Part shown: positions 6,289-58,410 of the stretch, in pieces
Position numbering within the stretch: the first letter of the stretch is position 1
Layout of the letters: every line of letters starts with the position of its first letter
DNA from: a virus
IMG/VR virus record: IMGVR_UViG_3300023717_000163
Strand: one strand, 5' to 3'
DNA: 64,000 bases
Notes under the pieces: generated by a model
The model's input: the letters and a program-made list of their open reading frames with translations, nothing else
Databases searched by the model: none
Told to the model about the DNA's origin: nothing
Translations under genes and position numbers: made by a program

Positions 6289-6756
6289 TTGCCAAAAAGT
6301 AAAGCGATAATTATGTCTAAAAAGGAAATAGAAAAGAGCAAGGAATTAGCACGCATGTACTACCTGAATGGCGAAACACAAAAACTTGTGGCCGAAAAGG
6401 TAGGGGTTAGCCGCGTAACGATTAACAAGTGGGTAGCCGATGGCGGTTGGGACACTATGCGCGTAGCGAAAACCATCACCCGGAAAGAAATCATTACTAA
6501 AATGATGCAGGAGGCTAACAAAAAGTTGGAAGAAGGGAAAATGTCTTTTGATGAAATGTCAAAGTTGGCCGCATCTATTGAAAAAATAGACAAGCAAACA
6601 AACGCAATTACTATTTACGAGGTAATGACCGTTTACAACGAATGGCTGATAGTTCGCACGAGTGTGGATAAAGAACTTACAACTGACCTGATTAAGACAA
6701 TGAACCACTACCAAGATATATTCCTGAGTGAACAGGTAGGCAAAAGCAAGTTCTAA
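6289..6756 (+). CDS. terS: Terminase small subunit
   Basis: 155 aa with an HTH (ELARMYYLNGETQKLVAEKVGVSRVTINKWV). Directly precedes the large terminase, abutting it with no gap. Confidence 0.55.
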   Translation: MPKSKAIIMSKKEIEKSKELARMYYLNGETQKLVAEKVGVSRVTINKWVADGGWDTMRVAKTITRKEIITKMMQEANKKLEEGKMSFDEMSKLAASIEKIDKQTNAITIYEVMTVYNEWLIVRTSVDKELTTDLIKTMNHYQDIFLSEQVGKSKF

Positions 6757-34302: not shown

Positions 34303-34425
34303 TAGATTTTGAAATATTAGTTCTTTGAATTTCAATTAATTAAAACCCGTCCACCTTCTCGTTTTACGGCAACGGATAACGGGACGAAAGCCGAAAGGCG
34401 TGGACGGTTGGCAGAGGGGAACAAG

Positions 34426-34532
34426 AGCTGGTTCTTTGGGGCGGTAATGCGAATAACGGTGCGAATTGCGGCCTCGCTTATGCGAACTCGAATAACGATT
34501 GGTCGAACTCGAATGCGAATATCGGCTCTCGC
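34426..34532 (+). repeat. DGR template repeat (TR)
   Basis: Non-coding copy rich in AAT/AAC triplets (reads LVLWGGNANNGANCGLAYANSNNDWSNSNANIGSR). Lies between the target gene and the RT. Confidence 0.7.
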
Positions 34533-34818
34533 CATACTTATTTATCGTAGAGTAATCTGCGAGTTCTCCGAGCCATGACCTTGCAGGATTTATATCGTTG
34601 CAACGTAGTAATCAATTGGTTACGATGTCAGAAAATCAAGAATGCGGAAAGGTTGCCCAATTTGCGAAAGGCAACAAGCGGTGTTAGTAGGTTGGTTCTC
34701 GAAAGCTCCGGGCGAATTATTCAAGCAAGTAAAAACAGCTTGCAGTTATCGGAATAATTAAAATAGTCTGAACAAGACAAAATTGGAAGTATGGTGTAAA
34801 TTTTAAAACAAAGCAGCA

Positions 34819-36362
34819 GTGAATATTGGAAGAAGTGATATTGATTGGAAGAGTCTATCGCATAATGAAATTGATAGAATTATAGCGGAAAGGATAGAGG
34901 CTGACAATAAACGGATAGAAGCAAACGGTGGAAAGAAATCTAAAAGAGCCGGGTATATTCTTGAACGTATAGCAGAGATAAATAATTTACGTGAAGCGGA
35001 CAAAGAAGCACAAGATGGGAAGGTTAAGAAAAACCGCTTTATCAGGCGGCATAATCTACACCCGGAAGAAGACCTCCGAGCTTTGCAGTTGATGATCCTG
35101 ACATTGGATTTTCCGGCACCGGATTATAGCGTAATGAGAGTAAAAAGTGATGCAGGAAAGGTTCGAGATATTGTCAAACAGAAATATTTCCCGTGGCGTA
35201 TATTGCACCATGCAATTATGAGGGTGATTGAAGAAGATGTTTATAGAAATTTGATTTATGATACAAGTGCGTGTATCAAGGGAAAGGGATTACATTTTGG
35301 AGTAAGGAGAATGAAACGTTTTCTTCACCGGTACCCGGAATACAAATGGTTCGTAAAGACTGATTTCAAAAAGTTCTATCAAAGTATTCTTCATGAGCTT
35401 ATTGTTGCTGCATTGAGAAGGAAATTCAAAGATGAACGATTTATTAAATTGATCGAGATAGCTGTTTTATCGTATGACAGCGGAACAGAGTTAGTTGACG
35501 TATTGGAGAATGAAGTTGAACGGAAGAAGAGGTGTTCCGATTGGAGCATTTACAAGCCAACCTATCGGGAATTTTGCGGCAAGCCGGATAGATCATACAA
35601 TGAAGGAGAAATATCGTGTCAAATGCCTGCATAGATATTGCGATGATAATGTTATGCTGGCTCGTTCTAAGGCCGAAGCGTTGTTTCTTATTCGTGCGTA
35701 TGAACGGGAAAGTGCAAAAGTTGGGTTGGTAGTTAAAGCAAACAGTTGTATTGCTCCGATAGGAACAGAAACAAAAAATGGGAACAAAAAGCATAGAAAG
35801 CGAAAACGTAGTAAGAGGAAGAAGGATTAACTTTTTGGGCTATTGCTTCACGAAAGATAATGTTCGGATGCGTAAAAATATGAAAAAGAACTTTGCCCGA
35901 AAGGTGAAACGAATAAAAAGCCGGAAACGTAACCGCGAGATACGAGCTTCATACTGGGGCTGGTGTAAGTGGGGAGATTGTAAGAATTTATGGAGAACAA
36001 TAACAAATAATGATATGAGTTTTGCAGATAAAGGTATCAAACAGAGTGGTAGAACAAAGGACGGAAAGAAGTTCTTCGATGTAAAAGAGACAAGATTGAT
36101 GGATATTCTCAATGTCCCTATAACAGTGGTGGACTTTGAAACGAATGTGAAGACAAAGCAAGGTGAAGGTAGATATTGTGTTCTTTTTGAACAGAACGGA
36201 CAACGTAGCAAATTCATAACGAACTGTTACAATCTGAAAGATGTGTTGGATCAGGCTCGCGAAGCGGAGAATAACGGTCAGAAGATTTTTCCAGTGGAAA
36301 ATGTGATTGTCAAGCGGCGTTCGTTAGGTGACGGGAAGAGTGCTTATTATTTTGAAGAATAA
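34819..36362 (+). CDS. DGR reverse transcriptase, interrupted by two apparent frameshifts (three ORF-track pieces)
   Basis: GTG start. Motif A VKTDFKKFYQSILHELI is in frame 1. Motifs B and C GVPIGAFTSQ and RYCDDNVMLA are in frame 2 (35495..35830). INFLGYCF is in frame 3 (35778..36362). The shifts fall at purine and A runs near 35515-35535 and 35770-35790. Confidence 0.7.
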
Positions 36363-38722: not shown

Positions 38723-39116
38723 TAATCCGTTAAATATACGGAGAAATAATACGAAATGGCAGGGGTTGTCTGCAACACAGACAGATAAAAGTTTCTTTCA
38801 GTTTAAAACTATGGCATACGGTTATCGTGCTGCTTTTAAAACTCTTCAAACTTATATTCTTAATAAGTATGATACTGACAAAGACGGCACGGCCAATGAA
38901 CTTGAAGATGTTATTATGCGATGGGCACCGCCATGTGAGAACAATACTGAAGTGTATATTGCCACAGTCGAAAAGCGTTCAGGCATATCTCGTCATACAA
39001 TTCTGAACAGAAACAACCGGGAACAACTTATTGCGGTGGTGGCTGCAATGAGTTATGTTGAGAATGGTGTTCCTGCAAACATGGATGAGGTAAGGAAAGG
39101 TTGGGAGTTGATATAG
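38700..39116 (+). CDS. Putative endolysin / lysis protein, RNNNPGN family (paralog of 3441..3842)
   Basis: Start moved to the internal ATG MTRGLRNNNPLNIR, which aligns with the paralog's start. Overlaps the holin-like gene's end. Confidence 0.45.
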   Translation: MTRGLRNNNPLNIRRNNTKWQGLSATQTDKSFFQFKTMAYGYRAAFKTLQTYILNKYDTDKDGTANELEDVIMRWAPPCENNTEVYIATVEKRSGISRHTILNRNNREQLIAVVAAMSYVENGVPANMDEVRKGWELI

Positions 39117-44871: not shown

Positions 44872-45124
44872 TATTTATTTCTTTAGAGTGGCAATTTCTA
44901 TCAAGTATCTCAATGCACTGTTTAATCCCAGTATCAAATCCTTCTTTATAGTCTTTGGTATGCTCACCTAAAACATATATAGTCATTGACAGCCAAAATA
45001 GAAGTATGCCAACGGATTTATACCAGCATGGTAAAGATATAGAAAAGGGTTTTAAGGTGATAGAGAAATCACCGATCCACAGAAGACCGGCAATGAGCAT
45101 GAGTAAATATAAGACTTTCATCAT
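44849..45124 (-). CDS. Small membrane protein
   Basis: 91 aa with two or three hydrophobic helices. Confidence 0.4.
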   Translation of the reverse strand: MMKVLYLLMLIAGLLWIGDFSITLKPFSISLPCWYKSVGILLFWLSMTIYVLGEHTKDYKEGFDTGIKQCIEILDRNCHSKEINNDETVQN

Positions 45125-45611
45125 TTATCATTGTTAAGTTCAACATATTTGCCTTGTAAAGAGCAGTTCCTTAAAATTTCGGCATTTTCCCGGCCAAATG
45201 CAATAAGAACACTACCGCAACCGGGGCTGTCCCCACGTGTTCCATCGGGACGGAAGAATTTTATTCGATTTCTCAAAAACATCATACCAGTTGCTTTCGT
45301 GAAGATGATGTCTTGAAACTTATTGCTGTCACACCGGTTAAAAAGTAGTGCTATACCGTTGCCGTGTTCTGCCAATTTCTCTACAAACTGCCATATAAGC
45401 GGTTTGGAGTACGGAGGGTTAAGCCAAATTCGCCCCCCCAATTTTGTACAAGACCATTGTCCTGCTTGTTGTACATGATTTTTGCAGTAGGCCAAAGAGG
45501 GTGCATGGGAGCACATGGATCAAGGTCAAATTCACCTAATGCTTCAATGATTTCTCGTGGTGTGTACCATTCATCGGAAGCATTTGCAGATCGTTCAAAA
45601 GATGTATTCAT
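45121..45611 (-). CDS. DNA N6-adenine methyltransferase (phage Dam, DEWYTP...NPPY type), frame broken at a G7/C7 homopolymer
   Basis: The N-terminal part (45381..45611) carries DEWYTPREIIEALGEFDLDP. The C-terminal part (45121..45516) carries WLNPPYS. The frames join only if the tract at 45433-45439 has 8 rather than 7 residues. Confidence 0.7.
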
Positions 45612-45844
45612 GTATTACTTACATTTAGGATTTTACGAATTTCTATATGATCACAATTTTCATCAGCCTTTTTCAGAATATAAGCAATCTCTTCTTCCTT
45701 ACTCATGTTCTGTGGACGTTTCGTTGCTTCTGCTCTCAATTCAGAAATAATTTTATCTACTTCGGGATTAGGAGTTTCATATAATTTTTTAAGTTCAGCG
45801 GCTCTACGTTTAATAAGTCGCTCTGTCTTTTTGTTTAATTTCAT
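45608..45844 (-). CDS. Hypothetical protein
   Basis: 78-aa ORF. Confidence 0.45.
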   Translation of the reverse strand: MKLNKKTERLIKRRAAELKKLYETPNPEVDKIISELRAEATKRPQNMSKEEEIAYILKKADENCDHIEIRKILNVSNT

Positions 45845-45845
45845 C

Positions 45846-46745
45846 TTACAACATTTTAAAGTATTCCTTGCATAAAAATCCTTTTCTTGGTGAAAAGTCT
45901 TTGAAGTCGCAACTCATGTATATTTCCTTCCTATCAGCCCAATGTGCCATATCTTTCTGCCACTGTGGAATAATTTGGTGTGGATTGTTCAGATCACGAA
46001 AGGGTTGACAATGTGGAAGAAAACGGCGGCTTTTAGATTTCCAGTAGTTGACGCGCGCAAACGATTCTTTAAAGTCCATAAGGATGCAATACAAGAAATA
46101 TTCCCCTTTATATCCATACTTGTCTATTAAAGCGGAAGCACGTTCAACTTCTGCAATCTGTCCCGGTGTATCGCATCCAAAGCGAATACGTTTAATCCAT
46201 TTTACTTTTGCAAGTAGCCGAGCGATTTCATCCGTGATTAAACGGGCATCCAGTCCTTGATTAAAATCCACTTTGATACCCAGTTTGATGATTTTCTCTA
46301 TTTGCTGCAAGCCATAGTTTGAGGCCAGTATATTATTATCCATAAGGATAGCTTTTTTCCGTCCGGCTGTTATTTCCTCAATATCCATATAAGGTGAGAT
46401 TTTTCCTTCTTTTTTAGGAACAACACACCATTTACACCGATTGGGACACCCACGTGTCAGAAATCCATAGGATAAATTGGAGTCAATATTGTAGATCGAG
46501 TAATCAGGTTGAAGACGATCAACCTCAACTGGAAGAACTTTTTCAATATCATATCCGGTACCACCTTTTTCTATTTGGTTAGTATTGATATAATAGTTAT
46601 AGTCGGGTGTGAAAGTGAAAACTTTAGCTGCATATACTTTATCATATTCACATAGTGGATTATACCATTCCACTTGATCGCCTCTTGCTTTGTGGTAAGC
46701 ACTGATCTTCATAAGTGCTAAATTGGGGGGGGGAATTGCTATCAA
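45846..46745 (-). CDS. Radical SAM protein
   Basis: GCPNRCKWC (CxxxCxxC). A G9/C9 tract lies 16-24 nt upstream of the ATG at 46709, or inside the gene if the TTG at 46745 is the start. Confidence 0.55.
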   Translation of the reverse strand: MIAIPPPNLALMKISAYHKARGDQVEWYNPLCEYDKVYAAKVFTFTPDYNYYINTNQIEKGGTGYDIEKVLPVEVDRLQPDYSIYNIDSNLSYGFLTRGCPNRCKWCVVPKKEGKISPYMDIEEITAGRKKAILMDNNILASNYGLQQIEKIIKLGIKVDFNQGLDARLITDEIARLLAKVKWIKRIRFGCDTPGQIAEVERASALIDKYGYKGEYFLYCILMDFKESFARVNYWKSKSRRFLPHCQPFRDLNNPHQIIPQWQKDMAHWADRKEIYMSCDFKDFSPRKGFLCKEYFKML

Positions 46746-46766
46746 CGGCTAAAATTCCAATATTCA

Positions 46767-47114
46767 TTATTCTTCAAATTTAGGTTTTGGCATCCATGCT
46801 ATCGGTTCCCATGACGGAGGTATGCTGCTCATTGAAGAGTAAATTGGGTTACCTTTGTACGTGTCATAGATATAACCATCCATGCAGAACCATACATTGT
46901 TGCTATATGTACCGTTAAAAATCGCACCATGTTTACATAGAATGATGATGTCTTCATTTTCATCCGGTAACCGTTCTTTCACTGATACCCACGGAGGTTG
47001 TTTTGTCTGCCATCTGGCTCCTTCTTTGAATCCTATTCTAAAACAAGTTATTTTATCCCAGTCAGGATGTACGCCTCCAATTTCATTTACGGCTTCTTCT
47101 AATGTCTGTTTCAT
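46767..47114 (-). CDS. DUF551-like phage protein
   Basis: PWVSVKERLPDENEDIIILCKHG matches the DUF551 signature. Confidence 0.5.
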   Translation of the reverse strand: MKQTLEEAVNEIGGVHPDWDKITCFRIGFKEGARWQTKQPPWVSVKERLPDENEDIIILCKHGAIFNGTYSNNVWFCMDGYIYDTYKGNPIYSSMSSIPPSWEPIAWMPKPKFEE

Positions 47115-47116
47115 AT

Positions 47117-47785
47117 CTATTTATCAAATAAATTAGTTTGAACCAACCTTCCTCTCTCTGTTTTTATCTCCCCAAAACATTCCCGGTGAAAACGTTCTTC
47201 TTGTGCTTCAAAGTATTCTTCATCTATTTCAGTTGCATAGAAATCGAATCCAAGTCCATAAGCAGCTATTCTGCTGCTTCCTGAACCTAAATGACTATCA
47301 AAAATTTTGTCTCCCTCTTTGGCGTTTTTTCTTAATATTTCAGCATATAATTTCACTGGCTTCTGACAACGATGGATATTTCCACCTCGTTCTCCAATTG
47401 TACACCGGTTTAGAGTTATGATCCGAAGAGCCTTGTCAAAACTACTCCATGCCAATTCACCGTCAGACATAGTTAATCCATGTTGTCCTTTATCCCAAAC
47501 AATCCAACCCATTTTGGGAGGAAGATAGGTAGTAAAGTAGTTACCACCAAAAATTATTTGATTCTTCGATACCCTGAATAGTTCCTCAAAATATTTCTTT
47601 CCGGGGGGGGACTTATCCCAATCCTTTCTTTTATATTGTTTAAAGCCTAAATGCTTCGGCATCCCACCTTTGTGCATTATGTCTATGCCATACTGGGGAT
47701 CGACTATCGCTAAATCAAAGAACTTATCAGGAATCCCCTTCATGTATTCCATACAGTCCATGTTATATACTTCGCTTATCGGCAT
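47117..47785 (-). CDS. DNA methyltransferase, beta-class (motif IV before motif I); N6A or N4C
   Basis: DLAIVDPQY upstream of FDSHLGSGSS. An in-frame G8 tract encodes SPPGK. Confidence 0.6.
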   Translation of the reverse strand: MPISEVYNMDCMEYMKGIPDKFFDLAIVDPQYGIDIMHKGGMPKHLGFKQYKRKDWDKSPPGKKYFEELFRVSKNQIIFGGNYFTTYLPPKMGWIVWDKGQHGLTMSDGELAWSSFDKALRIITLNRCTIGERGGNIHRCQKPVKLYAEILRKNAKEGDKIFDSHLGSGSSRIAAYGLGFDFYATEIDEEYFEAQEERFHRECFGEIKTERGRLVQTNLFDK

Positions 47786-47799
47786 TATTTATATCCTTT

Positions 47800-48033
47800 C
47801 TATTCTGTTATTATTAATTTCATGTGCATTCTTGAAATCATTTTCTCTTCTTCTTTCAACTTATGATAATAATCTATAGCTTCATCTTTAGTATTGAATG
47901 TACCAACACACGAATAATGCCAAGATCCGAAAGGATCTTTGAGGATATACAAGTTGTATGAACCTAAGACCGTTTTCGCCAAATAGTAAGGATCTCGTAT
48001 CATAATGTTCATTCCATTTTTATTTACTCGCAT
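47800..48033 (-). CDS. Hypothetical protein
   Basis: 77-aa ORF. Confidence 0.4.
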   Translation of the reverse strand: MRVNKNGMNIMIRDPYYLAKTVLGSYNLYILKDPFGSWHYSCVGTFNTKDEAIDYYHKLKEEEKMISRMHMKLIITE

Positions 48034-48875
48034 AGTCCATGAAACAGACTCATGCAGGCATATCCACCTTCCGGCTCGAACATATCAGGGGTATGTTCTT
48101 TAACGTACTCCAAAACTTCCTCTACATAAGGATATTGTTTGTTTTTACAGAATCTTTGAGGTATGTATAATGGAGGAAAGAAGGAATGTCCTACGCTTTT
48201 CTCTGCTTGAATTAGGCGTTGGCACATTTTAGGATCATTTTTGGCTATGAGTTCGATTTCTTTGTGCCGACACATGATACACGGGAAACATCCAACACGT
48301 GAGAATCCACGATAATACAATGGATTCGGTTTCTGCCCTGCATCCAGTATGCAATCTATAACTTGCTGTGCACTCCATTTGAAGATAGGTCTTAGAACAG
48401 AAGCGTCATATTGGGAACACCATTCTTTGACATCCTTACTTCGGTAGTTTTCAGTTCTTCCTTTCTTATTAGGTTGAAAATACGATTTGAAGTACATACA
48501 TTCCTCTTCCATTGCCGCACGTGCTGTACTTTCTCCGGCTCTGATACCTTGTATGATAATGCAGCTTTCTTTCAAAGAAAGTACATAATCAATCATTGGC
48601 TTCATTTTTAGTTCACTGGTACAAAATCGTGCATTCGTGGAAGGAAATCTTTTCTTATGAGCTGCCAAAGACACAAAATCATATTTTGATTTGAGAGTTA
48701 TAAGTCTTACACCCATTTGCAGACAAACATCATTCACATGTTTATATGTGTCAGGGTGTTCCCAACCGGTGTCACAAAACACAGCGGTTAAATTCCCCCC
48801 CCCATATTGTTTGAAGGCTTGGATTAAACATGCTTGTGAATCCTTACCACCTGAAAAACTTACTAATATTTTCAT
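48024..48875 (-). CDS. PP-loop ATP pyrophosphatase, PAPS-reductase/QueC superfamily
   Basis: SFSGGKDS P-loop and a C-terminal GCFPC...C Cys cluster. An in-frame C9 tract encodes YGGGN. Confidence 0.6.
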   Translation of the reverse strand: MKILVSFSGGKDSQACLIQAFKQYGGGNLTAVFCDTGWEHPDTYKHVNDVCLQMGVRLITLKSKYDFVSLAAHKKRFPSTNARFCTSELKMKPMIDYVLSLKESCIIIQGIRAGESTARAAMEEECMYFKSYFQPNKKGRTENYRSKDVKEWCSQYDASVLRPIFKWSAQQVIDCILDAGQKPNPLYYRGFSRVGCFPCIMCRHKEIELIAKNDPKMCQRLIQAEKSVGHSFFPPLYIPQRFCKNKQYPYVEEVLEYVKEHTPDMFEPEGGYACMSLFHGLCE

Positions 48876-48877
48876 TT

Positions 48878-49207
48878 TTATGCCATTTCAATTTTTACAT
48901 ATTCATTTTTATTAATCCCGGCACTACCTTTGGGAGAATACACTAATCGGCCTCCATTATCCAATATCTTTTGTACATCTTTCATAGCTTGGTATGCTTG
49001 GGTATAGTCTTTGTATTCTTGGTGGCCTATTGGATATTTGCAATATCTTCTACCACCGTCAGGCATGATGCTGATACCGAATACTGTTTCATAAGTTTTT
49101 CGGTTGAAATTCTGTTGAGTCCTTACTTTCATTTTTTTTGATACATTTTCCCAGTTTAAGTATAAATACACATTCGTTATCCGGTGCTCCCCAATTGGTG
49201 TTACCAA
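48878..49207 (-). CDS. Hypothetical protein
   Basis: 109-aa ORF. Its start may be the internal ATG, since it overlaps the next gene by 119 nt. Confidence 0.35.
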   Translation of the reverse strand: MVTPIGEHRITNVYLYLNWENVSKKMKVRTQQNFNRKTYETVFGISIMPDGGRRYCKYPIGHQEYKDYTQAYQAMKDVQKILDNGGRLVYSPKGSAGINKNEYVKIEMA

Positions 49208-49505
49208 CTCCGATGGTTATAGATTCAAGTTCAAAAAGCATTGTCCGTTTGGTGTAGCCAAAACGGAAGCGAACATGAGTGTATTCTTTGGGGTGAAAGC
49301 CGTTTCCACGTGTAATACAAGAAAAACAAATAGCTTTCTTACAATAGAAACCAGTCTTTTCATAGGAATTGCGACCTCCACATTTTGCTAATCTTCCGAT
49401 CCAGTATTTCTTGATCTCTCTGTATTCTTCTTTCTTATTTCCGGATTCGATCATTTCATACCATTTTGCTTTTAATGGCAGGTCAAGGATTTTCATATTA
49501 ACCAT
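49089..49505 (-). CDS. ASCH-domain protein
   Basis: SGNKKEEYR fits the GxKxxExR ASCH signature. Confidence 0.45.
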   Translation of the reverse strand: MVNMKILDLPLKAKWYEMIESGNKKEEYREIKKYWIGRLAKCGGRNSYEKTGFYCKKAICFSCITRGNGFHPKEYTHVRFRFGYTKRTMLFELESITIGVGNTNWGAPDNECVFILKLGKCIKKNESKDSTEFQPKNL

Positions 49506-49739
49506 AGTCTAAAAGAGTTGCGGATTCTGTTTGTCGTGAAGGATTTTTTGAACACGTTCAATTTCTTCATCTACTTCACGCTCAATTTGTTTACTTATTC
49601 GTAAATCTATCTGTCTCTTATTTTTTAAATATTCTTTTTGGCAACGGCGCATTTCCACCACTTTGTCGAAAAAATCTTTTGGAGTCATAGATTTAAAAGG
49701 TATGGAAAAGGCCGCTTTGATGCGGCCTCCCCAGTGTGA

Positions 49740-50324
49740 TTACTTTTTTCCAATCAGAAAGTCTTTCCACAATTCTTTGAATTGTTCTCCAAAGTAAATT
49801 GCGATTTCACTTGATTTTACAGCAAGGCGAGAGCCGATATACGCAGACGAGGACGACCAAGCGGAAGCCGAGTTCGCAGAAGCGAGGCCGCAAAACGCAC
49901 CGAAATTCGCAGAACCGCCCCAAAGAACCAGCCGATTACGATCCTCTTCGTCCATTTCATCAATTTCTTTTTGATTATAAAGATAAAACCACGGCGTATA
50001 ACGGTATTCATCTTTAGTAAATCGTGGAAAATCAGGATCGTTGTTTAACGCACGGGCAATAGTGTATAGTTTGATGTAGGCGAGGTGTGCAATATCAGCC
50101 ACTTCTTCTTTGTGTCCGTCTTCATCTTCAACAAGTAGGCGAACAATGGGTTTTACACCTATTGCTTCACAAGCATCTTCGTAGGTTTTAATATTGTGAT
50201 AATCTGTATAATCCGGCTTTTGCTTTCCGAATAGGGCTGTTAGAATACTAATTGCTTTAGGACAGTCGTTTGCTTCACTAAAAGCGGCTGTTACCTTTTC
50301 TTGTGTGATTTTAAGTTCTGACAT
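49740..50324 (-). CDS. DGR target protein 2 (194 aa) carrying the remote variable repeat VR2
   Basis: C-terminal LVLWGGSANFGAFCGLASANSASAWSSSSAYIGSRLA. All 17 nucleotide differences from the TR fall at TR adenines. Confidence 0.6.
   Translation of the reverse strand: MSELKITQEKVTAAFSEANDCPKAISILTALFGKQKPDYTDYHNIKTYEDACEAIGVKPIVRLLVEDEDGHKEEVADIAHLAYIKLYTIARALNNDPDFPRFTKDEYRYTPWFYLYNQKEIDEMDEEDRNRLVLWGGSANFGAFCGLASANSASAWSSSSAYIGSRLAVKSSEIAIYFGEQFKELWKDFLIGKK
49826..49933 (-). repeat. DGR variable repeat VR2 (about 15 kb from the TR, on the opposite strand)
   Basis: Reverse complement aligned to the TR by hand across its full ~108-bp length. The 17 mismatches are all A-to-N. Confidence 0.65.
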
Positions 50325-50332
50325 AATGTAAA

Positions 50333-51085
50333 TTATTTATTGTTAATACTATATCCGAATAATGCAAAATCTCCCCGGCACGGATCATCCGGGAAAATTG
50401 TTTTCATGTAATTGGTTACTTGTTGAACCATTTTCCAGTCCTCTGTTTTGCGTGTTGTTATCCCAAGCTGATGTGCCATTTTTGCAACATGCGCATCCAA
50501 TGGTATGTATAATTCTGTTGGATGAATAATAGTCCAAATACCTAAATCCACCGGCGATTTTCGTACTACCCACCGTAGAAACAGACAAATACGCTTGCAT
50601 GGAGAATCACGCTCCAATTTTGGAATACCTTTTACGCCACCAAAATCTGTTTGTATTTCACGGATAACATTGTTGTAACCCTCATAAAATACTTCCAAAT
50701 CATCCCATTCCTGATATATGTTGTACAACCGCTGGCAAATGCAGAAGAAGTCATGGTAGGTGAACATACGGTAGAAGGTATTTGTATTTTCTTTGTATTG
50801 TTCCCATACTTTGTTCATAATGAAGTCATAAGGAGAATTACCCATTAGATTATCCAAAATTTCTGCTTGCTGCATTATCAGTTTGCGATTCCCGAAAGCT
50901 ATCCATGAAGTAAGAAAGGCACTGATTTCTATGTCCTTTTTATCACTGTACTTATGTGGGAAGAATATAGGATCATCTTTTATAAAATCAGGTGTTTCAA
51001 ATTGTTTTGCCCAGTCAAGTAGTTTGTTTCTTAGTTCTTCCATAATATTCTTCTTTCCATTTTTTGAAAGCGGCTTCTTTATCAT
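50333..51085 (-). CDS. HhH-GPD superfamily-like protein (DNA glycosylase fold)
   Basis: IPLDAHVAKMAHQLGI resembles the vDTHvfRv.nRlgl helix-hairpin-helix motif of Nth/MutY-type enzymes. Confidence 0.4.
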   Translation of the reverse strand: MIKKPLSKNGKKNIMEELRNKLLDWAKQFETPDFIKDDPIFFPHKYSDKKDIEISAFLTSWIAFGNRKLIMQQAEILDNLMGNSPYDFIMNKVWEQYKENTNTFYRMFTYHDFFCICQRLYNIYQEWDDLEVFYEGYNNVIREIQTDFGGVKGIPKLERDSPCKRICLFLRWVVRKSPVDLGIWTIIHPTELYIPLDAHVAKMAHQLGITTRKTEDWKMVQQVTNYMKTIFPDDPCRGDFALFGYSINNK

Positions 51086-51698
51086 TTGATTTCATCCTTT
51101 GTATGAATGATTGATGGGATTCCAATAATTCTTTGGCCTCTTCATCTCCATTTTCCGATCTTTCAGTTAGATGTTTGATATATTCTCCGTAGAACATTCC
51201 AGTGCTGTTATTATTTTGTTCATGGGCTTCATTAATTGAAAGAGAAGAAACAATTTCATCACGCTGTACATCGTATTCATTTAACCAGCCGAGAATGATA
51301 TTACCGTCCAGTCTATCGTAAATCTTACCGGAAGCCATAGCATTACGGAAACACAATTTGATTTCCTCCAATTTGAGATAATAGAATCTGTCTATTATTA
51401 GATCAGCGGTAAGTGCCACTTGAACATCATTCATCGTTTTTCCAACATTGAAAAAAGACACAAGCTCGTTAATCGCAATTACCAGTATGGCTCTTGCGCC
51501 AGCCAATGTGATTTCTTTTCTTATAACGGAGAGTGGTAGGTTAGGAGTGTTGAGAACAGCTTCTTTAATCGAACTTACGTGCAATCCCTTGTAATACTCC
51601 GCTTGCAAGGTCAGCAAGTCTTTCAACGCTTTCTTTTCGGTTGCCGGGAGATTGCTGTTGACTTGAATTAAGTTGTTTCCCATACTTGTTAAAATCAT
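51015..51698 (-). CDS. Hypothetical protein
   Basis: 227-aa ORF. The likely start is the internal ATG (MGNNLIQ), given a 134-nt overlap with the upstream ORF. Confidence 0.4.
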   Translation of the reverse strand: MILTSMGNNLIQVNSNLPATEKKALKDLLTLQAEYYKGLHVSSIKEAVLNTPNLPLSVIRKEITLAGARAILVIAINELVSFFNVGKTMNDVQVALTADLIIDRFYYLKLEEIKLCFRNAMASGKIYDRLDGNIILGWLNEYDVQRDEIVSSLSINEAHEQNNNSTGMFYGEYIKHLTERSENGDEEAKELLESHQSFIQRMKSNDKEAAFKKWKEEYYGRTKKQTT

Positions 51699-51984
51699 TA
51701 TTAGACCATCTGACTAAACGTTTGGAAACTTCAAATGTACGTTCCTTCTCAAAGCGCATTTTCCGGCCTCCGCATTCAGTCCAATACTCAAAAAAGTCCT
51801 TCAACATATCATCAGGATATTTTCCTCTATACATGAGGACTTCACTTCTGAATTTGTCTTTCCTTGCAGAAAGAGAATCCTTATTCATATTCATCTTATG
51901 GCCTAATCCGGCCATGAATGCTTGTTCCAATGTTGCATCGGGATGATCCCGACACCATTGGGCTGCTAATTCTTCTGATTTCAT
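51565..51984 (-). CDS. Hypothetical protein
   Basis: 139-aa ORF. Its C-terminal ~45 aa overlap the next gene in another frame. Confidence 0.4.
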   Translation of the reverse strand: MKSEELAAQWCRDHPDATLEQAFMAGLGHKMNMNKDSLSARKDKFRSEVLMYRGKYPDDMLKDFFEYWTECGGRKMRFEKERTFEVSKRLVRWSNNDFNKYGKQLNSSQQQSPGNRKESVERLADLASGVLQGIARKFD

Positions 51985-51989
51985 TTGAT

Positions 51990-53095
51990 TTATAATTTAG
52001 ATAACCAATATTTCCATACTCGTGAGGCTACTTGTGCCATCATAACGGGTGGTACACTCATTCCACAGATATAATGTGGGGATTGGTTGAGGAAATGATA
52101 ATCTTGTGGAAATGTGGATATATTACATACTTCTGACCGTGATAAATATATAGGCTGCTTAAAAGGAATAATTGAGTCTGCATGAGTTGTTAGGGTGTAG
52201 CTTACTTTGTTCTCATATAGATATTGTTGATTAAAAAAGCCTCGTTTTCCAGTTTGTTTCTTATAGGCCTCTGCCAAAGCAATATCTCCTGCCACTCTCT
52301 GCTCAAATAACTTTCTCATTTTTACGCCAATAGGCTTTCCCTTGTAATCCGCATATTCCCCATAATATATTTCCGATTCATTAAATTCCATGTCGATGTA
52401 TGGCTCAACATTGAAGAGGTCTGAAACTTTTAGGAAATGGGCTCCCAAATCATGTCTGATACATATAAAGAATACACGTTCTCTTTTTTGAGGTACTCCC
52501 ATTTTAGAAGCATCAAGAAGAAAATGCTGACAGTAATAACCAGCTTCCTCAAAGCCTTTGTATATACGTCTGACATAATCAATCGCATTCCCTAAAAGAA
52601 GTCCTTTTACATTTTCAGCAATAACGACTTTAGGTTTTAAGCGTTTGGCAAGTGCAATAAAATCAAAAAAGAGCGTGTCTAAAACTTGTGTCTTTTGACC
52701 TTCCTTGAATTTCTTTTCTTTACCCCACGCATCTTCACGTAATCCCGACATGCTAAATGTACTGCAAGGTGGTGATCCGTCCAATATATCTAAATTGTAC
52801 AGTTCTTCGGGAAGATTATTCCTTTTCACTAAATCACGAATATCTTCCAAATAACTATACTGGGGATGATGGTTTGTTTCATAGCATTTCATCATTCGTG
52901 GATCAATCTCATTACAGCCAATAACATCGTAACCTGCTATTTTGTAACCCATAGTAGAGCCACCGCCACATGCAAAACAAGAAAATACCTTTCCCTTATC
53001 TTTAGTAAAAACAGCATCTTCTAAAGACCAGCGATAAGGATAGAGATGTTGTGTATGGGGGGGGTAATTACATCTTTCATCATTCCACCTCCCAT
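51990..53095 (-). CDS. DNA cytosine-5 methyltransferase whose N-terminus (motif I) is out of frame at a G8 tract
   Basis: PPCSTFSMSG and ENVKGLL lie in the annotated ORF. Motif I FSCFACGGG is upstream of the annotated ATG, in frame but with no start codon. The ATGs at about 53084-53095 join this frame only if the G8 tract (53057-53064) becomes G9. Confidence 0.7.
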
Positions 53096-53616
53096 AATTC
53101 AGCTACTCTTTTGAACTCTTCATCAGCTGGAACCGGGCAATCTTTGATCCATTGCATATCTTTTACTTTCCATAACGAAAGGTCTGTGTTGTCAGGAATA
53201 TGCTTTTTAATATCAGGAAAAAGATTGAGCCGAAGAGATTTACTTTCCATAAGTTCATCTTTGTAATCCAACAAAAAATTATTGGCCTCCAATAAACTAT
53301 GAACATCATTAACAGAATGTGGAGTGTAAACAACTCCATCGAAGTATCTGATATAATTGGGGAGCATATCAGCCAGTGCCGTATATAGAAATAATTTTCC
53401 TTTATTTCCATAGGCCAATTTTTGAACGGTTTTGATACTTTCAGCCAAATTTGCCAGTTTTTCAGGAAACAAAAGTGGTTCTCCACCAGTTATCATGATC
53501 TCTTTGTAATTAAAGTGCTCAACAACTGGTAATTTTGAAAAATCCCATGAGTTGTTGCAACACATAGGACATTTGTTCGGACATTTGGTTGTAACCAATA
53601 GACGTAACTTTTCCAT
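53080..53616 (-). CDS. Radical SAM protein, QueE/PflA-activase-like
   Basis: N-terminal CPNKCPMC (CxxxCxxC) and MITGGEPLL. Confidence 0.5.
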   Translation of the reverse strand: MEKLRLLVTTKCPNKCPMCCNNSWDFSKLPVVEHFNYKEIMITGGEPLLFPEKLANLAESIKTVQKLAYGNKGKLFLYTALADMLPNYIRYFDGVVYTPHSVNDVHSLLEANNFLLDYKDELMESKSLRLNLFPDIKKHIPDNTDLSLWKVKDMQWIKDCPVPADEEFKRVAELWEVE

Positions 53617-53892
53617 TTATAATGATATTGTTTGGGTGTATTTCAATTCTCCGGTATATCCACGTGCTTTCAATTCTGCGATAAGTTCCCGTGGAGAAAA
53701 TTTTGCCAATTCAGGATTGGAATATATTTTCTTCAAATTCCCCCCCCCCGGAGTTTTCTTACGGTTTCTGGCATAAACATTACCGCACTCTTTACAATAT
53801 GTCTGCAATCCATCTTCGGTTGAAGCATTTTTCCAAAACTCACTGACCGGAAGTTCCCGGCCACATTTGCTACATTTTTTTAATTTTTCCAT
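53617..53892 (-). CDS. Zinc-ribbon protein
   Basis: CSKCGRE...CKECGN. An in-frame C10 tract encodes PGGGN. Confidence 0.45.
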   Translation of the reverse strand: MEKLKKCSKCGRELPVSEFWKNASTEDGLQTYCKECGNVYARNRKKTPGGGNLKKIYSNPELAKFSPRELIAELKARGYTGELKYTQTISL

Positions 53893-54347
53893 TATTCCTT
53901 TTCTTTAATTCTACCATATTCACATATTAGTAAGGCATCCGAAGTTGCCAATGTAACTTTTGCATACGGGAACAGCTGTTGGGCTTTCTTCTTTAAGATG
54001 TTTTTCCATTCTGTCTTACCCAATTTGTCTGTATTTCGTAATCCTATAGTTTTTTGCCAAGTTTGTGGAGATACTGTTACTGTCGGAATCCCACAAGCTA
54101 TCAATCCCATAGTCAGCTGTCCGTAACTTTCTCCAAAAACAAAAGAGGCAGAAGCACTTTGTCCGGTCATGCCATTCACTCGTTCCAAATAACAAACGCT
54201 ATTTTCTTTGTATATGGAGAGAAAATCTAATAAGTCTTTGGGAGTTGGTGGCATTTTGATACACTCCAATAATTTGTTATTCTCGGTGTCGTACACTACA
54301 ATACCACCGTTTTTGCCAACATCTATACCTATGATCCTTCGTTTCAT
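53892..54347 (-). CDS. RuvC-like Holliday junction resolvase
   Basis: IIGIDVGKNGGIVVYD at the N-terminus and TSDALLICEYG near the C-terminus, matching the RuvC fold. Confidence 0.55.
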   Translation of the reverse strand: MKRRIIGIDVGKNGGIVVYDTENNKLLECIKMPPTPKDLLDFLSIYKENSVCYLERVNGMTGQSASASFVFGESYGQLTMGLIACGIPTVTVSPQTWQKTIGLRNTDKLGKTEWKNILKKKAQQLFPYAKVTLATSDALLICEYGRIKEKE

Positions 54348-54350
54348 AAA

Positions 54351-54518
54351 TTATACTTTTTTGTTTATAAATCTTTTGAGCTTAATTACATCTTTCTTTC
54401 CAAGCCTTAGTGCTTCACTGGTCTTGATGTCAGAAGGTGAAGCTTTACAATTCTCGGTTATCCTTTCAAAATGTCGGATAAAGGATTTTAGGAAATAGTC
54501 GGGAATTTCAACTTTCAT
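54351..54518 (-). CDS. Small hypothetical protein (ATG-initiated part of the track ORF)
   Basis: MKVEIPDYFLKSF... The track ORF's TTG-initiated extension covers the tRNA-like T-arm. Confidence 0.3.
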   Translation of the reverse strand: MKVEIPDYFLKSFIRHFERITENCKASPSDIKTSEALRLGKKDVIKLKRFINKKV

Positions 54519-54532
54519 AATGATTGATTTAT

Positions 54533-54697
54533 GAGAATAAGCCCGGACTCGAACCGGGAACTGTTGCAATCAGGATTTTCGTTTCTGCTTCCGTTTGTAC
54601 GTATGTCAAGTGTTAATAGCATGATTACCTGACTCGTGATGCTATTCGTGCATTTTTACCACAGAAACTAAGCGTCTTCCAATTCCGCCACTTATTC
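54533..54697 (-). other. tRNA-like RNA element with a 7-bp acceptor-like pairing and a canonical T-arm, about 165 nt long
   Basis: On the minus strand: 5' GAATAAG...U8...GG...cccggTTCGAGTccggg-CTTATTC-t. The T-stem is a perfect 5 bp. No canonical anticodon arm could be placed. Confidence 0.3.
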
Positions 54698-55096
54698 GTT
54701 TGCCTCCACAATAGAGGCATTCTTATATGAACAAAAAGACTCTTTGTAGTATCTACCGCCGTGGAGCGTATGCAGCGTACTCGGCTCGACTTGCAAAGAG
54801 AAGAAAAAAGGTGAGGCATGATAGTTCCCGGATAGGCGGCCAAGCCACACCGGGAGAAGCTGATTATTAATCGGGTTAATGATTATTGTTTTAAGAATTT
54901 AGCAAAAGTCTTGATTGAGCTTTCATTATTACTTTTTAAAGAGGCCAATTCTGTATTTTTAGAAGTTAGCGTAGAAATAACAGATTTATTCTTTTCGATT
55001 TCTGTATCAATATCACTATTAAGTGTTTCCAAATCGGCTTTTGCTTGTGTAAATTGAGACAATATTGTATCTCTTCTTTGTTGAAATGTCGGTATA

Positions 55097-55888
55097 CTAT
55101 TTTGTTATTTTTAGAAATTCAGGAGCAATACCATACAAAGGGCTTGTTCCATCCCATTTGTCAATGAACTGTTTATATAATATTTCTTTTGTCAGACCTC
55201 TTGACTGAATTAGAGCCTGCTCGGTTTTTAACTGTTCCAGTTCATTGCGCTTCTTCTGTTCCTCAATTTGTTGATCCAACACGGAGATATTGGTATTCAC
55301 TTCATTTCTACTATCAATTTTTTCGCGAACTTTATCGGAGAACTCCAACTGGGCAGAGAATGTGAGTAATTGCAGACCTCTTTTTTCAAACTCTTTGTCA
55401 ACTATCTGTTCCAATCGTTTCTCAAACACTAATGAACCTCCATCAGCCATTAAACTGTCAGTCTTATGTTTCCGACTTTCCTCTTTTATCAAATCATATA
55501 TACGTGGCTCCAAAATGTTATCTTCTAACGAAGACATGAAATCACTTCCACGGCCAATATGCTTGTTGTCAAAGACAACATCAATGGCACGGTTCTTGAT
55601 AACTTTATAGCTATATGTGGGACGTGCCTTGAACTCTGTATTATCGGCTGCTTTCAGTGTGACAGCTTCGGCAAATTCTCCACGCTGATCGAATAGCGGA
55701 ACTTGAAAAAGCTCTGTGCCTAATTCCCATGTAGATACCTTACCGGAAACGATTTTAAAATCTTCTTTTCCTTGTTTGCCGTAGTTCTCCATAAGGACAC
55801 CGGCATAATTGGGAGCAACTCTTTCGCATGAAGCAAACAAAACAACGGCAAATAATGCCACAATCAAAAAATCAATCTTTCTTTTCAT
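55097..55888 (-). CDS. Lipoprotein with coiled-coil regions
   Basis: Signal and lipobox (LFAVVLFASC); 263 aa. Confidence 0.5.
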   Translation of the reverse strand: MKRKIDFLIVALFAVVLFASCERVAPNYAGVLMENYGKQGKEDFKIVSGKVSTWELGTELFQVPLFDQRGEFAEAVTLKAADNTEFKARPTYSYKVIKNRAIDVVFDNKHIGRGSDFMSSLEDNILEPRIYDLIKEESRKHKTDSLMADGGSLVFEKRLEQIVDKEFEKRGLQLLTFSAQLEFSDKVREKIDSRNEVNTNISVLDQQIEEQKKRNELEQLKTEQALIQSRGLTKEILYKQFIDKWDGTSPLYGIAPEFLKITK

Positions 55889-56045
55889 TTTCTACTTTTT
55901 TAATGATATTATAAACTATAAATGCTACAGTCAGCATGATTATTGAAATTCCAAGCCACGCATTTATGTGATTGAATACGCGGTTGCCAATGAAGAAAGC
56001 CGATACGACAAGTACCGGCTTCCAGTATTTCTTTACAGACTTCAT
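55866..56045 (-). CDS. Small membrane protein (59 aa)
   Basis: Translated by hand (MKSVKKYWKPVLVVSAFFIGN...), with two hydrophobic helices. Overlaps both neighbours. Confidence 0.3.
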
Positions 56046-56047
56046 TG

Positions 56048-56791
56048 TTATTGTTCGATAATGGCAATATCCGGTGCCAATTTACGAATTAACAACAATT
56101 GCTCGTCAATGGCCTTATTACGCTCTTCTTCCACTATTACTTCTGCACCGGGAGAGCAAAGGGATAATCGAATGTTACGCCCATCCACATCTGCAATGAT
56201 TTCCACTTCAATTTCTTCTGCCGGGCGACCTTTGAAAATCGGAACAATAAGATTGAATGAGGCCGGAAGATTGGAGTTGACAACTTGGCTGTAATTGTCA
56301 GTGCGACTACCGTTGTCTTGTCGGGAGTTTTCCACTTTTGAGTCAATGCTGGCTTTGAAGTTCTTCAAGACTGTTACCAGTTCCATGTTGTATTGTGCAT
56401 CCTTGAAGAAGGCACGATTCATTTTGAAGAACTTTGAAAGCTGCACCGGTTCCCATGTCTTGCTTGTGTTAATACCAAATTCAAGAAACTTGGGATAGTA
56501 TTTCAACTCACCTCTTACAGTAGCTTTATTCCTACTGTCAGTTTCATTGGTGACAAGTTTAAGTGTCATTTTCTCCCGATCAACAAGAATATAGCAACGT
56601 TTCTGATTGATCTGCTCTTTTTCAGAGATTCTTTTCAAGAGAAATTCATGAACACTTCCAATTGTTCCGGCTAATTCTACCTTATCAGGCTCCAGTACCG
56701 GTAACTCATTTTCTTCGTGAAGTTCAATAACTCTAAGGGTTGCTTCGGTCATACCCGGAGCAAAGTTCACTTGCATCTTTTCGTTTCCCAT
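56048..56791 (-). CDS. Hypothetical protein
   Basis: 247-aa ORF. Confidence 0.5.
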   Translation of the reverse strand: MGNEKMQVNFAPGMTEATLRVIELHEENELPVLEPDKVELAGTIGSVHEFLLKRISEKEQINQKRCYILVDREKMTLKLVTNETDSRNKATVRGELKYYPKFLEFGINTSKTWEPVQLSKFFKMNRAFFKDAQYNMELVTVLKNFKASIDSKVENSRQDNGSRTDNYSQVVNSNLPASFNLIVPIFKGRPAEEIEVEIIADVDGRNIRLSLCSPGAEVIVEEERNKAIDEQLLLIRKLAPDIAIIEQ

Positions 56792-56797
56792 GCTGTT

Positions 56798-57076
56798 CTA
56801 CAAATTTTTAGTTCTGTTTTTAAATGATTTGGCAGGTTTGAAATGTGGAGTATAATGCTCCGCTATGACAATAGTCTCGTTTTTGTGTATGTTACGAGCA
56901 ACTTTTCGTTTATAGTGTTTGGGTGACAGTGTGCCAAAACCTCTGATATAAAGAGTCTTTCCATTAGCTACTGCATCCACGGTCTCTTTCAGTGCTGCCT
57001 CTATGACAGTTCGGACTTCACAAATAGCGATACCGGTTGATTCGGCTACTTGCTTGATAAGTTCTTCTTTCCTCAT
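56798..57076 (-). CDS. HU/IHF-family DNA-binding protein
   Basis: RGFGTLSPKHYKRKVARNIHKNETIVIAEHYTPHFKPAK matches the HU arm region. Confidence 0.7.
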   Translation of the reverse strand: MRKEELIKQVAESTGIAICEVRTVIEAALKETVDAVANGKTLYIRGFGTLSPKHYKRKVARNIHKNETIVIAEHYTPHFKPAKSFKNRTKNL

Positions 57077-57079
57077 AGC

Positions 57080-57508
57080 TTATCCCTCCGTACCAGTAGA
57101 TTCCATGTCCTCGAAGACTGTTTTCTGCATCTCTTGTGCTTCCATCGGACGTTCTTTAACCAAGTCACCATTACCATTGTAATATCCGGTAGTACGGGTG
57201 CTACGTTCCATGAACTTAAAGCATTCATCCGTAATTTCCTCATAACCACGCTTTATATCGGTAAGCAACGTTTTTTTACGCTCTTTTTTAGGTTTCATCT
57301 TGTCTTTGTATGCCTGCATGAAAGCTTTCTTTTCTTCTTCCAGTGCGGCCATATCAAGATCAATATTTGCCAACTCCGTTTTCCGTTCACCCATTTCTTC
57401 CTCACTGAAAGGAGAGGTATAGGTGATTCTTTCAACTGCTGCGCAATTGTCTTCCAACATTTGTCTGCGAAGCAATGGATTCTTGTCTTTAAATAGTTCT
57501 TTATCCAT
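57080..57508 (-). CDS. Hypothetical protein
   Basis: 142-aa ORF. Confidence 0.5.
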   Translation of the reverse strand: MDKELFKDKNPLLRRQMLEDNCAAVERITYTSPFSEEEMGERKTELANIDLDMAALEEEKKAFMQAYKDKMKPKKERKKTLLTDIKRGYEEITDECFKFMERSTRTTGYYNGNGDLVKERPMEAQEMQKTVFEDMESTGTEG

Positions 57509-57509
57509 A

Positions 57510-57812
57510 TCATAACGGTTTTAAGCCATATCGGGCAGAACCGACAAATGGCTGTGGGTTAGTCCTTATGTTTGCTTTGTGTATATCATCTGTACGATGA
57601 TTGAATAATCGGGGTAATCCCGTTATTTTGTCATATACAACCAGTTCAGACGATACATAACAAATAAAGCCTTTCAGTCGCTCTTTCAACCATGCGTTCT
57701 GATAGGCTCTGCGTTCACGATACTCTTGGTAGCTCATTCCTTTGGGACGAGCTGTGAGAAGGGGAGTGTAATTTCTCGCCCCCCCCGATTTAGATTTACT
57801 CTTTCCCATCAA
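57510..57812 (-). CDS. Hypothetical basic protein
   Basis: 100-aa ORF. An in-frame G8 tract encodes SKSGGARN. Confidence 0.45.
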   Translation of the reverse strand: MMGKSKSKSGGARNYTPLLTARPKGMSYQEYRERRAYQNAWLKERLKGFICYVSSELVVYDKITGLPRLFNHRTDDIHKANIRTNPQPFVGSARYGLKPL

Positions 57813-58410
57813 TCAAATTTTTATATTGTTTTTCTGAAACGAACTTGTCGCAGTTCTTATACCAAGTGCCATCATTTATTTTGTATGGGTTGCTCGTTTC
57901 ATCCACTTCATTCATAATACCGACTACCGCATTTTCTTTGTTGTTATCATCCCATACGATAACAATATCGCCGACAGTCGGGATATATTCAGGCTGTAAC
58001 TTCTCAAAATTGAAGGAGTAATGTTTTTCTTCCTTCATGGCGGCAAGCATCTTTGCCTTTTCCTCTTCTGTAGCTTTACGGAATCCCTTCATGCCTCCGA
58101 TACCAGCTTCGGGTGTGAGTTTTACAAAAACTCTGTCACCTTCATCGTTGGAAGGAACATAAGCGACAAGGCCGAAAGGTACTTTTATTGCTGGTAAAAA
58201 AGGAAGCGGCCTTTCTTCTCTAATTTCAGAGAGAATCATCATGCTGCCCCCTCCGCGATTTGGATTGATAATTACGTCACCGGGGATGAATGTCTCACCT
58301 TCAAACTCAAATTTACCCCCCCCCATAACTTTTTGGGTAGATTGCATACTTTCTTCTTTCACGATTTTTACCATGTGTCCTTCGGGCACTTCAACTGTTA
58401 CTGTTCTCAT
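57796..58410 (-). CDS. Hypothetical protein
   Basis: 204-aa ORF. An in-frame G9 tract encodes MGGGK. Confidence 0.5.
   Translation of the reverse strand: MRTVTVEVPEGHMVKIVKEESMQSTQKVMGGGKFEFEGETFIPGDVIINPNRGGGSMMILSEIREERPLPFLPAIKVPFGLVAYVPSNDEGDRVFVKLTPEAGIGGMKGFRKATEEEKAKMLAAMKEEKHYSFNFEKLQPEYIPTVGDIVIVWDDNNKENAVVGIMNEVDETSNPYKINDGTWYKNCDKFVSEKQYKNLIDGKE

Follow-up and report, generated by a model that had tools for sequence, protein, structure and literature searches.

A Length-Variable Homopolymer in the Leader of a C5-Cytosine Methyltransferase Gene of a LoVE-Type Bacteroides Phage, a Probable Slipped-Strand Contingency Locus

Organization of the C5 Methyltransferase Locus

A 64-kb stretch of viral DNA (IMG/VR record IMGVR_UViG_3300023717_000163; 64,000 nucleotides (nt), hereafter called the window) carries on its minus strand the gene of a predicted C5-cytosine DNA methyltransferase, orphan and Type II-like, whose reading frame is broken near the 5′ end by a homopolymer. 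This tract, GGGGGGGG, is a run of eight G at 53057-53064 of the plus strand; on the minus strand, which is the coding one, it reads C8 and falls at codons 7-9 of the leader of the methyltransferase. The leader and its start codons (53065-53083, minus strand; ATG ATG AAA GAT GTA ATT A, giving MMKDVI..) begin with a tandem ATGATG at 53083-53078; a further in-frame ATG upstream, at 53095-53093, would yield MGGGMMKD. Past the tract lies the N-terminal segment of the enzyme (52953-53057, minus strand; HTQHLYPYRWSLEDAVFTKDKGKVFSCFACGGGST), which is in the -1 frame relative to ATGATG and holds motif I, the FxGxG motif for binding of S-adenosylmethionine. The body of the methyltransferase follows at 51990-52952 (minus strand), called as an open reading frame (ORF) of 320 amino acids (aa) with motifs IV, VI, VIII and X.

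At C8, the ATGATG frame, MMKDVITPPIHNISILIAGL, comprises 20 codons (ATG ATG AAA GAT GTA ATT ACC CCC CCC ATA ...) and ends at a TAG at 53023-53021. The rest of this dead-end frame past the tract (53021-53056, minus strand; ..IHNISILIAGL) overlaps the N-terminal coding segment of the methyltransferase in another frame. The -1 frame past the tract (PPHTQHLYPYRWSLEDAVFTKDKGKVFSCFACGGGSTMGYK / HTQHLYPYRWSLEDAVFTKDKGKVFSCFACGGGSTMGYK) is open without a stop down to 51990 and enters the called ORF; the trans-frame peptide of the methyltransferase is VITPPPHTQHLYPYR. A tract of C9, C6 or C12 would join the leader frame to the methyltransferase frame, and the window is thus one C short.

No ATG, GTG or TTG is present in the methyltransferase frame between the tract and motif I: the first is the ATG at 52952-52950, past motif I. 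An alternative start downstream of the tract was therefore rejected. The sole upstream candidate for this frame is a CTG directly after a stop codon. In the window, motif I (FSCFACGGG) lacks its own start codon and is not in the ATGATG frame, and hence is not contiguous with the catalytic core; in the relatives with C9, motif I and the core are contiguous in one frame.

An earlier note, made from the sequence of the window, had placed the G8 tract at exactly this position, with the ATG ATG upstream of it in another frame and the start of the called ORF past motif I. All three observations are correct, and a product from the ATG at 52952 would lack the FxGxG motif. The note had also considered a non-ATG start downstream of the tract that would give an intact motif I; this was looked for, and none is present. 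Its statement that the frames join only with nine G stands for C9, the common in-frame allele; C6 and C12, found in one genome each, are in frame as well.

Protein Family and N-Terminus

The protein reconstructed with C9 scores 152.4 bits on PF00145 (cut-off 22; E = 2.7e-44) and covers positions 2-321 of the 324 in the profile, and the methyltransferase of a full-length relative matches phrog_116 (E = 2.9e-69). Against the PDB, the first match is 8yf3_A (E = 3.9e-45), with an alignment starting at motif I, and the next are M.HaeIII (1dct) and M.HhaI (10mh). Motifs IV (PPCSTFS), VI (ENVKGL), VIII (QKRERVF) and X (GMSVPP) are all present and align with those of the solved enzymes. The variable target-recognition region lies between motifs VIII and X, at approximately residues 184-297. 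No restriction partner was found among the early-gene neighbours of the methyltransferase in the phage.

Thirty distant homologues (42-65% identity), found in other phages and prophages of Bacteroidota, start ~31-38 codons upstream of the methionine of MGYK. Their N-terminus reads M..HKFPYNWTLKDAxFTKDKGKVFSCFACGGGSTMGYK, with an intact motif I and a contiguous start codon, and most are without a homopolymer. As these proteins, whose comparison the earlier note had proposed, begin upstream with motif I, the real N-terminus includes this motif. The LoVEphage lineage has added a short leader specific to it, of ~10 residues (MMKDVITPPP), which carries the tract.

Phage of Origin

The window is a temperate Bacteroides phage of the LoVEphage type. 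The region shares 99.7% identity with records OY725593 and OY731444 of the Bacteroides phage LoVEphage and 99.3-99.6% with BI-TP1, which was induced from Bacteroides intestinalis; for the LoVEphage reference MW660583, OY731433 and the Phocaeicola phage PV4-TP1, the value is 96-99%. The genes of BI-TP1 (L076) include those for integrases, a repressor and a reverse transcriptase accompanied by an Mtd-like tail protein; hence, BI-TP1 is temperate and carries a diversity-generating retroelement. The reverse transcriptase and the Mtd-like tail gene are at 5441-8092 of BI-TP1, which probably corresponds to about 32983-35634 of the window. LoVEphage is present in ~8% of gut viromes and has been induced from B. 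thetaiotaomicron, P. dorei and P. vulgatus (PMC12629997).

Length of the Tract among Relatives

The length of the methyltransferase tract was compared in 108 genomes, the window included: GenBank relatives, IMG/VR contigs, GTDB genomes and metagenome contigs containing the leader, many of the last at a coverage of 1-5x. C6 was found once, C7 ten times, C8 38 times, C9 42 times, C10 13 times, C11 three times and C12 once, and the leader DNA and flanks of the tract are invariant among relatives. The ATGATG frame reaches FSCFACGGG in 40 genomes (37%), all of them C6, C9 or C12 alleles (the ON state). The related genomes are not uniformly C9 (uniform G9, in reads, would have counted against the reading of the earlier note), and both C8 and C9 occur at 22-484x: contigs in this range, together with an isolate at 53x, show C8 in six cases (the isolate counted) and C9 in five. 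C8 is also the length in BI-TP1, in the LoVEphage reference MW660583 and in the B. acidifaciens isolate DSM 15896 (53x), and genomes of isolates or induced phages, taken together, include both ON and OFF states. OY731444 and OY725593 have the same length at every tract.

Six GenBank relatives have C8, C9, C8, C9, C8 and C10, and two of these lack six bases just past the tract. The full-length coding sequence (CDS; 1107 nt, MGGGMMKD...) is annotated in the two C9 genomes only, the others being annotated from an internal ATG.

Runs of this kind are not expected in a window of 40% GC. G/C 8-mers match 12 times (overlapping matches, in seven tracts), compared to 0.77 expected from dinucleotide shuffles, none of 100 of which reaches 12; therefore, G/C runs of eight are not a chance feature. 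Across 14 kb, 86 substitutions separate the window from BI-TP1, and net indels are found at two G/C tracts only. Between 44 and 61.5 kb, G/C runs of at least 7 show a net change of length in 28-100% of relatives, and the C5 methyltransferase tract in 82%. The corresponding share is 0-8% for control A/T runs of 6-7 within coding sequence and 4% for a G6 run. Because the control runs are mostly stable, the instability is specific to long G/C runs and does not reflect a general assembly problem.

Some A/T runs in the same region also vary. A T8 run at 49132-49139 (A8 on the coding strand, near the 3′ end of an ASCH-domain ORF at 49089-49505) differs in 30% of relatives, far above the T6-T7 runs and below most G/C tracts, the one at 58316 (28%) being similar. 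Two intergenic T6 runs, at 54357-54362 and 55896-55901, vary in ~35% of relatives (~30-36% for these and the T8 run). Both sit in a stretch poorly conserved between LoVE-type genomes, the tRNA/small-ORF region at 54.4-55.9 kb.

Constraint and Alleles of the Methyltransferase

Some relatives have a methyltransferase that is 77-80% identical, with the tract at the same place. Compared with these, the number of synonymous substitutions per site (dS) is 0.47-0.61 and the ratio of the nonsynonymous to the synonymous rate (dN/dS) is 0.25-0.30, and no internal stops were found in the compared relatives, genomes in the OFF state (tract out of frame) included. The body of the methyltransferase is under purifying selection. 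Divergence is confined to residues ~184-297: residues 1-183 are 98% identical. Two target-recognition alleles occur, ~50% identical over residues 184-297 and 96-98% identical over the rest of the protein, with the same leader and tract. They are found in 65 and 10 genomes, and each exists both ON and OFF. This implies that two predicted methylation specificities circulate in LoVE-type phages behind a common leader tract. The allelic region lies at 51990-52400 in the window and at 9050-9390 in L026. The body is intact in 75 of 92 complete copies.

In other lineages of the C5 family (50-63% identity, including a Prevotella metagenome-assembled genome), a poly-G run is located inside the codons of motif I (TGT GGG GGG GG.), as G7, G8 or G9 and in both ON and OFF states. 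The run is separate from that of the leader; hence, the C5 family has acquired 5′ homopolymers more than once. Examples are L030:8487, L064:8488, L081:8487, L032:48, L033:8486 and L054:8486. Apart from the run, L030 (G8) and L064 (G7) do not differ in this region; neither is in frame.

Neighboring Gene and Seven Sister Tracts

Directly upstream of the methyltransferase lies a small radical-SAM-like gene (53080-53616, minus strand) of 178 aa with a CxxxCxxC motif, a weak match to PF04055 and a match to phrog_31524. Its TGA (53082-53080) overlaps the first ATG of the leader (53083-53081) as ATGA, an arrangement that suggests co-transcription and translational coupling. The two genes adjoin in LoVE-type copies only. 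A conserved module of a small radical SAM gene and a methyltransferase was rejected, as the radical SAM gene is absent beside all distant homologues.

All G/C runs of at least 7 in the window fall within 45433-58324. They form eight tracts of 7-10 nt, each located inside the first 60 codons of a minus-strand gene, and all eight vary in length among relatives; lengths of the seven sister tracts were taken from a BLAST-anchored survey. A C7 at 45433-45439 of the plus strand (G7 on the coding minus strand) splits a gene of a Dam-family N6-adenine methyltransferase (~45121-45611, minus strand; PF05869, phrog_111) into the frames ..NWGGEFG and GGRIWLNPPYS. The gene is OFF in the window and would be ON at 8; relatives have lengths of 6-10, and a single CDS of 492 nt where the length is 8. 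Another methyltransferase, of the N6/N4 type (beta-class, DPQY; 47117-47785, minus strand; PF01555, phrog_67), has C8 on its coding strand at codon 59 (47603-47610, minus strand). It is ON here; relatives most often have a length of 9 (OFF), and the gene is given as two CDSs in OY731444.

The PAPS-reductase-like PP-loop gene at 48024-48875 (minus strand; PF01507, phrog_424) carries a C9 of the plus strand (48795-48803; G9 on the coding minus strand) at codon 25, after SGGKDS; it is ON, and the commonest length in relatives is 10 (OFF). A C10 at 53740-53749 of the plus strand (G10 on the coding strand) is situated at codon 48 of the gene for a zinc-ribbon protein of 91 aa (53617-53892, minus strand; phrog_1035, phrog_5558), annotated elsewhere as Lar-like or HNH; it is ON, and its length ranges from 6 to 11. 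Two further ORFs of the minus strand are also ON: one of 99 aa (57510-57809) with C8 on the plus strand (G8 on the coding strand) at codon 8 (57779-57786; 7-12 in relatives), and one of 204 aa (57796-58410) with C9 on the plus strand (G9 on the coding strand) at codon 29 (58316-58324; 7-11 in relatives).

The last tract, C9 on the coding strand at 46725-46733 (minus strand), occupies codon 12 of a radical SAM gene (~45846-46767, minus strand; phrog_9298, E = 2.8e-125). The frame of the first 12 codons is shifted in the window, and a TTG at 46745 could restart translation. The same site reads GGGGA in 19 relatives and G5 in three, among them BI-TP1, whose identity to the window over the compared 14 kb is 99.3%, as against G9 in the window, an apparent birth of a new tract.

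The three methyltransferases show 6 of the 8 possible ON/OFF combinations among 16 genomes, and nine genomes with seven scorable tracts display seven different ON/OFF patterns. The tracts probably switch independently. The earlier note, which had described the C5 gene as a second methyltransferase of the cluster broken at a G homopolymer, was right as to the break but understated its extent: tracts are carried by the genes of three methyltransferases, which differ in class, and by five further genes. The phage may, thus, combine two mechanisms of hypervariation, the retroelement and the tracts. Gene callers truncate or split the tract genes in 5 of 6 GenBank records examined; therefore, catalogues of gut phage methyltransferases, and methylome predictions, are wrong unless the tract state is considered.

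In 6 of the 8 tracts, AATT (mostly AAATT) is found within 8 nt on the 5′ side of the C-run, with a background of ~0.04 and a binomial P of ~1e-7. The sites are 45425-45447, 46717-46741, 48787-48803, 53057-53072, 53732-53749 and 58308-58324, and they are not oriented to transcription. At the tracts at 45433 and 46725, AATT is also present on the 3′ side, so that short inverted repeats enclose the run. One other G/C run of at least 7 occurs in the first 50 kb of BI-TP1, a G8 at 38800-38807 in a GC-rich non-coding stretch; no sequence homologous to it was found in the window.

Genes of PAPS-reductase/PP-loop, ASCH-domain and DUF2400/TIGR02757 type at 48024-51085 adjoin the methyltransferases, and radical-SAM-like genes are near (45846-46767 and 53080-53616). 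By its gene content, the collection looks like a module for DNA or RNA modification.

Proposed Mechanism and Alternative Explanations

The tract of the C5 methyltransferase is most probably a slipped-strand contingency locus, in its OFF state in the window, a reading to which a probability of about 0.85 is given. It has several features of such loci: a repeat in the 5′ coding region of a length beyond that expected from composition, polymorphic with conserved flanks and toggling an intact ORF. Slipped-strand mispairing during DNA replication would add a C to the tract or remove one. With C9 (or C6, C12), translation from the ATG at the stop codon of the upstream gene would read MMKDVITPPP into motif I and give the whole enzyme. 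With C8, translation would end after 20 codons, and the downstream start would yield a protein without motif I. Switching would be frequent and reversible within phage populations, and the eight tracts together would give progeny with differing DNA-modification states. From what is known of other systems, this could be a form of bet-hedging, in which protection from host restriction-modification is set against exposure to modification-dependent restriction or against the cost of methylation to the lysogen.

Several points weigh against this interpretation. The evidence for switching consists of variation between genomes, and redundancy among the metagenome, IMG/VR and GenBank sequences, which is possible, would inflate the number of genomes. 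The ON fraction of 37% is close to the one third expected for a random frame, which fits fast switching and a dispensable, unselected gene equally well. RNA polymerase slippage may allow low-level expression at C8. Finally, 17 of the 92 complete copies of the gene have an extra frameshift or stop in the body, one of them at 75x. They include T6->T5 at the position matching 52233-52238 (A6 on the plus strand) in L111 (75x) and L129, A3->A2 in L109 and L162, and C4->C3 in L116 and L143; the sites of such deletions also include those matching nt 91 and 639 of the methyltransferase. Copies with such second-site deletions look permanently inactivated, and the gene is, as far as these copies indicate, dispensable and being lost in some lineages.

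These damaged copies and the ON fraction of about one third are what would be expected if the tract were simply a mutational hotspot, if switching had no adaptive role and if the accessory gene, being dispensable, were decaying into a pseudogene; moreover, Bacteroides prophages often gain and lose accessory methyltransferases (PMC10333322). Such plain decay is nevertheless very unlikely, because the tract and an intact ORF have been kept across a dS of 0.5-0.6 under a dN/dS well below one, without internal stops in the OFF genomes compared. Leader and tract have stayed in place through an exchange of the target-recognition region, eight G/C runs are clustered at the 5′ ends of genes in 13 kb of a 40% GC genome, and unrelated lineages evolved a second tract in the C5 family. 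Equally unlikely is a miscall of the homopolymer, in which the OFF records would truly be C9 and the variation an artefact of sequencing or assembly. Homopolymers are error-prone on some platforms, and the low coverage of many survey contigs would favor such errors. Yet C8 recurs in the independent records BI-TP1, MW660583 and the DSM 15896 isolate, contigs at high coverage show both C8 and C9, lengths from 6 to 12 occur, the A/T runs of 6-7 in these contigs are almost invariant, with the G6 run varying in just 4%, and OY731444 agrees with OY725593 at all tracts.

Programmed recoding would make C8 the normal state, the full-length enzyme being produced by a -1 ribosomal frameshift on C CCC CCC or by RNA polymerase slippage. 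Long homopolymers allow transcriptional slippage, C8 is one of the two commonest alleles, and it needs a shift of exactly -1 on a run of identical codons, which is formally slippery. The required shift is not constant, however: 0 for C9, and -1 or +1 for the other lengths (C8/C11, C7/C10). The spacing past the tract differs by 6 nt between two common alleles, no stable downstream RNA structure is predicted (folding z = -0.83), and in-frame C9 genomes are as common as those with C8. As the frame relation is not conserved, the spacer is variable and no stable RNA structure is predicted, a programmed -1 frameshift site was rejected, and recoding in general is given a very small probability.

If slipped-strand gating is extended from the C5 methyltransferase to the other genes, LoVEphage, which ranks among the most prevalent temperate phages of the human gut, may run at least seven independently slipping G/C tracts, with combinatorial ON/OFF states of three methyltransferases, the PAPS-reductase-like enzyme, the zinc-ribbon protein and others. 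This wider proposal is tentative and is held to be rather doubtful. If true, each burst would be a mixture of modification states, which could help to explain the infection of several Bacteroides and Phocaeicola species, and in lysogens the battery could act as a prophage-borne phasevarion. The AATT bias and the series from G4A to G5 to G9 at 46725 would then point to a sequence-specific origin or upkeep of the tracts.

Comparison with Known Systems

Slipped-strand gating is already known as a kind of regulation, and no report of it was found for this phage: no mention of the tracts was found in the two papers describing LoVEphage or in the Bacteroides methylome paper, homopolymers, frameshifts and phase variation are absent from the two LoVEphage papers, and a search for literature on homopolymers of Bacteroides phages gave nothing relevant. 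Of interest here are how many tracts there are, that they are concentrated in genes of DNA modification, and how prevalent the phage is. Restriction-modification repertoires of Bacteroides are very diverse and partly phase-variable (PMC10333322, PMC7641763). If the present reading is true, a phage that randomizes its own methyltransferases would be the phage-side counterpart of this variability, and slipped-strand contingency loci would act in abundant gut phages, beyond those of Campylobacter and the T-even phages.

The enzyme belongs to the same fold family as 8yf3_A, M.HaeIII and M.HhaI, with which motifs I, IV, VI and VIII align. It differs from them in the target-recognition region, where 37-45% of the sequence aligns weakly, and in the gene: theirs are contiguous and have no leader tract.

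Among phages, the Fletchervirus group infecting Campylobacter has hypermutable polyG tracts in receptor-binding genes, as reported in later summaries (Sorensen et al. 2021, Cell Rep 35:109214, via PMC12823448, PMC12633550). According to these accounts, several G/C homopolymers of 7-11 nt are likewise found inside phage coding sequences, and a change of length shifts the frame and gives progeny of mixed phenotype. Those phages are described as virulent, with receptor-binding proteins under the control of the tracts, whereas here DNA-modification and accessory early genes are concerned, in a temperate Bacteroides phage. Contingency loci have also been described in phages T2 and T4, in agt and rIIA (Gomez, Barrick & Waters 2025, PMC12633550). 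There, too, homopolymer slippage affects phage genes, including the DNA-modification gene agt, and bet-hedging against host defence has been proposed. The T2/T4 runs are mostly short A/T runs (at least 6 nt) spread genome-wide; those described here are G/C runs of 7-10 nt in one 13-kb module, far above composition. In the Bordetella phage BPP-1, a methylase gene contains a polyG tract (Liu et al. 2004, summarised in PMC12633550). It resembles the LoVE-type phages in being a temperate phage with a diversity-generating retroelement and a G-run in a DNA methylase gene; in that summary, unlike here, the tract is a single one, noted but unstudied, and the host phylum is different.

In bacteria, phase-variable methyltransferases include Mod of Type III and HsdM/S of Type I systems, in Haemophilus, Neisseria, Helicobacter and Moraxella (PMC7394358, PMC6902483). 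As in these phasevarion genes, a repeat in the 5′ coding region gates a methyltransferase, and allelic target-recognition domains stand behind the conserved repeat. Phasevarions, on the contrary, are formed by chromosomal N6-adenine restriction-modification enzymes, usually with tetra- or pentanucleotide repeats, and the present gene encodes a predicted orphan C5 enzyme of a phage, with a mononucleotide run. The locus, therefore, shares with phasevarions a repeat-gated methyltransferase with allelic target recognition, while it stands outside the chromosomal Type I and Type III systems.

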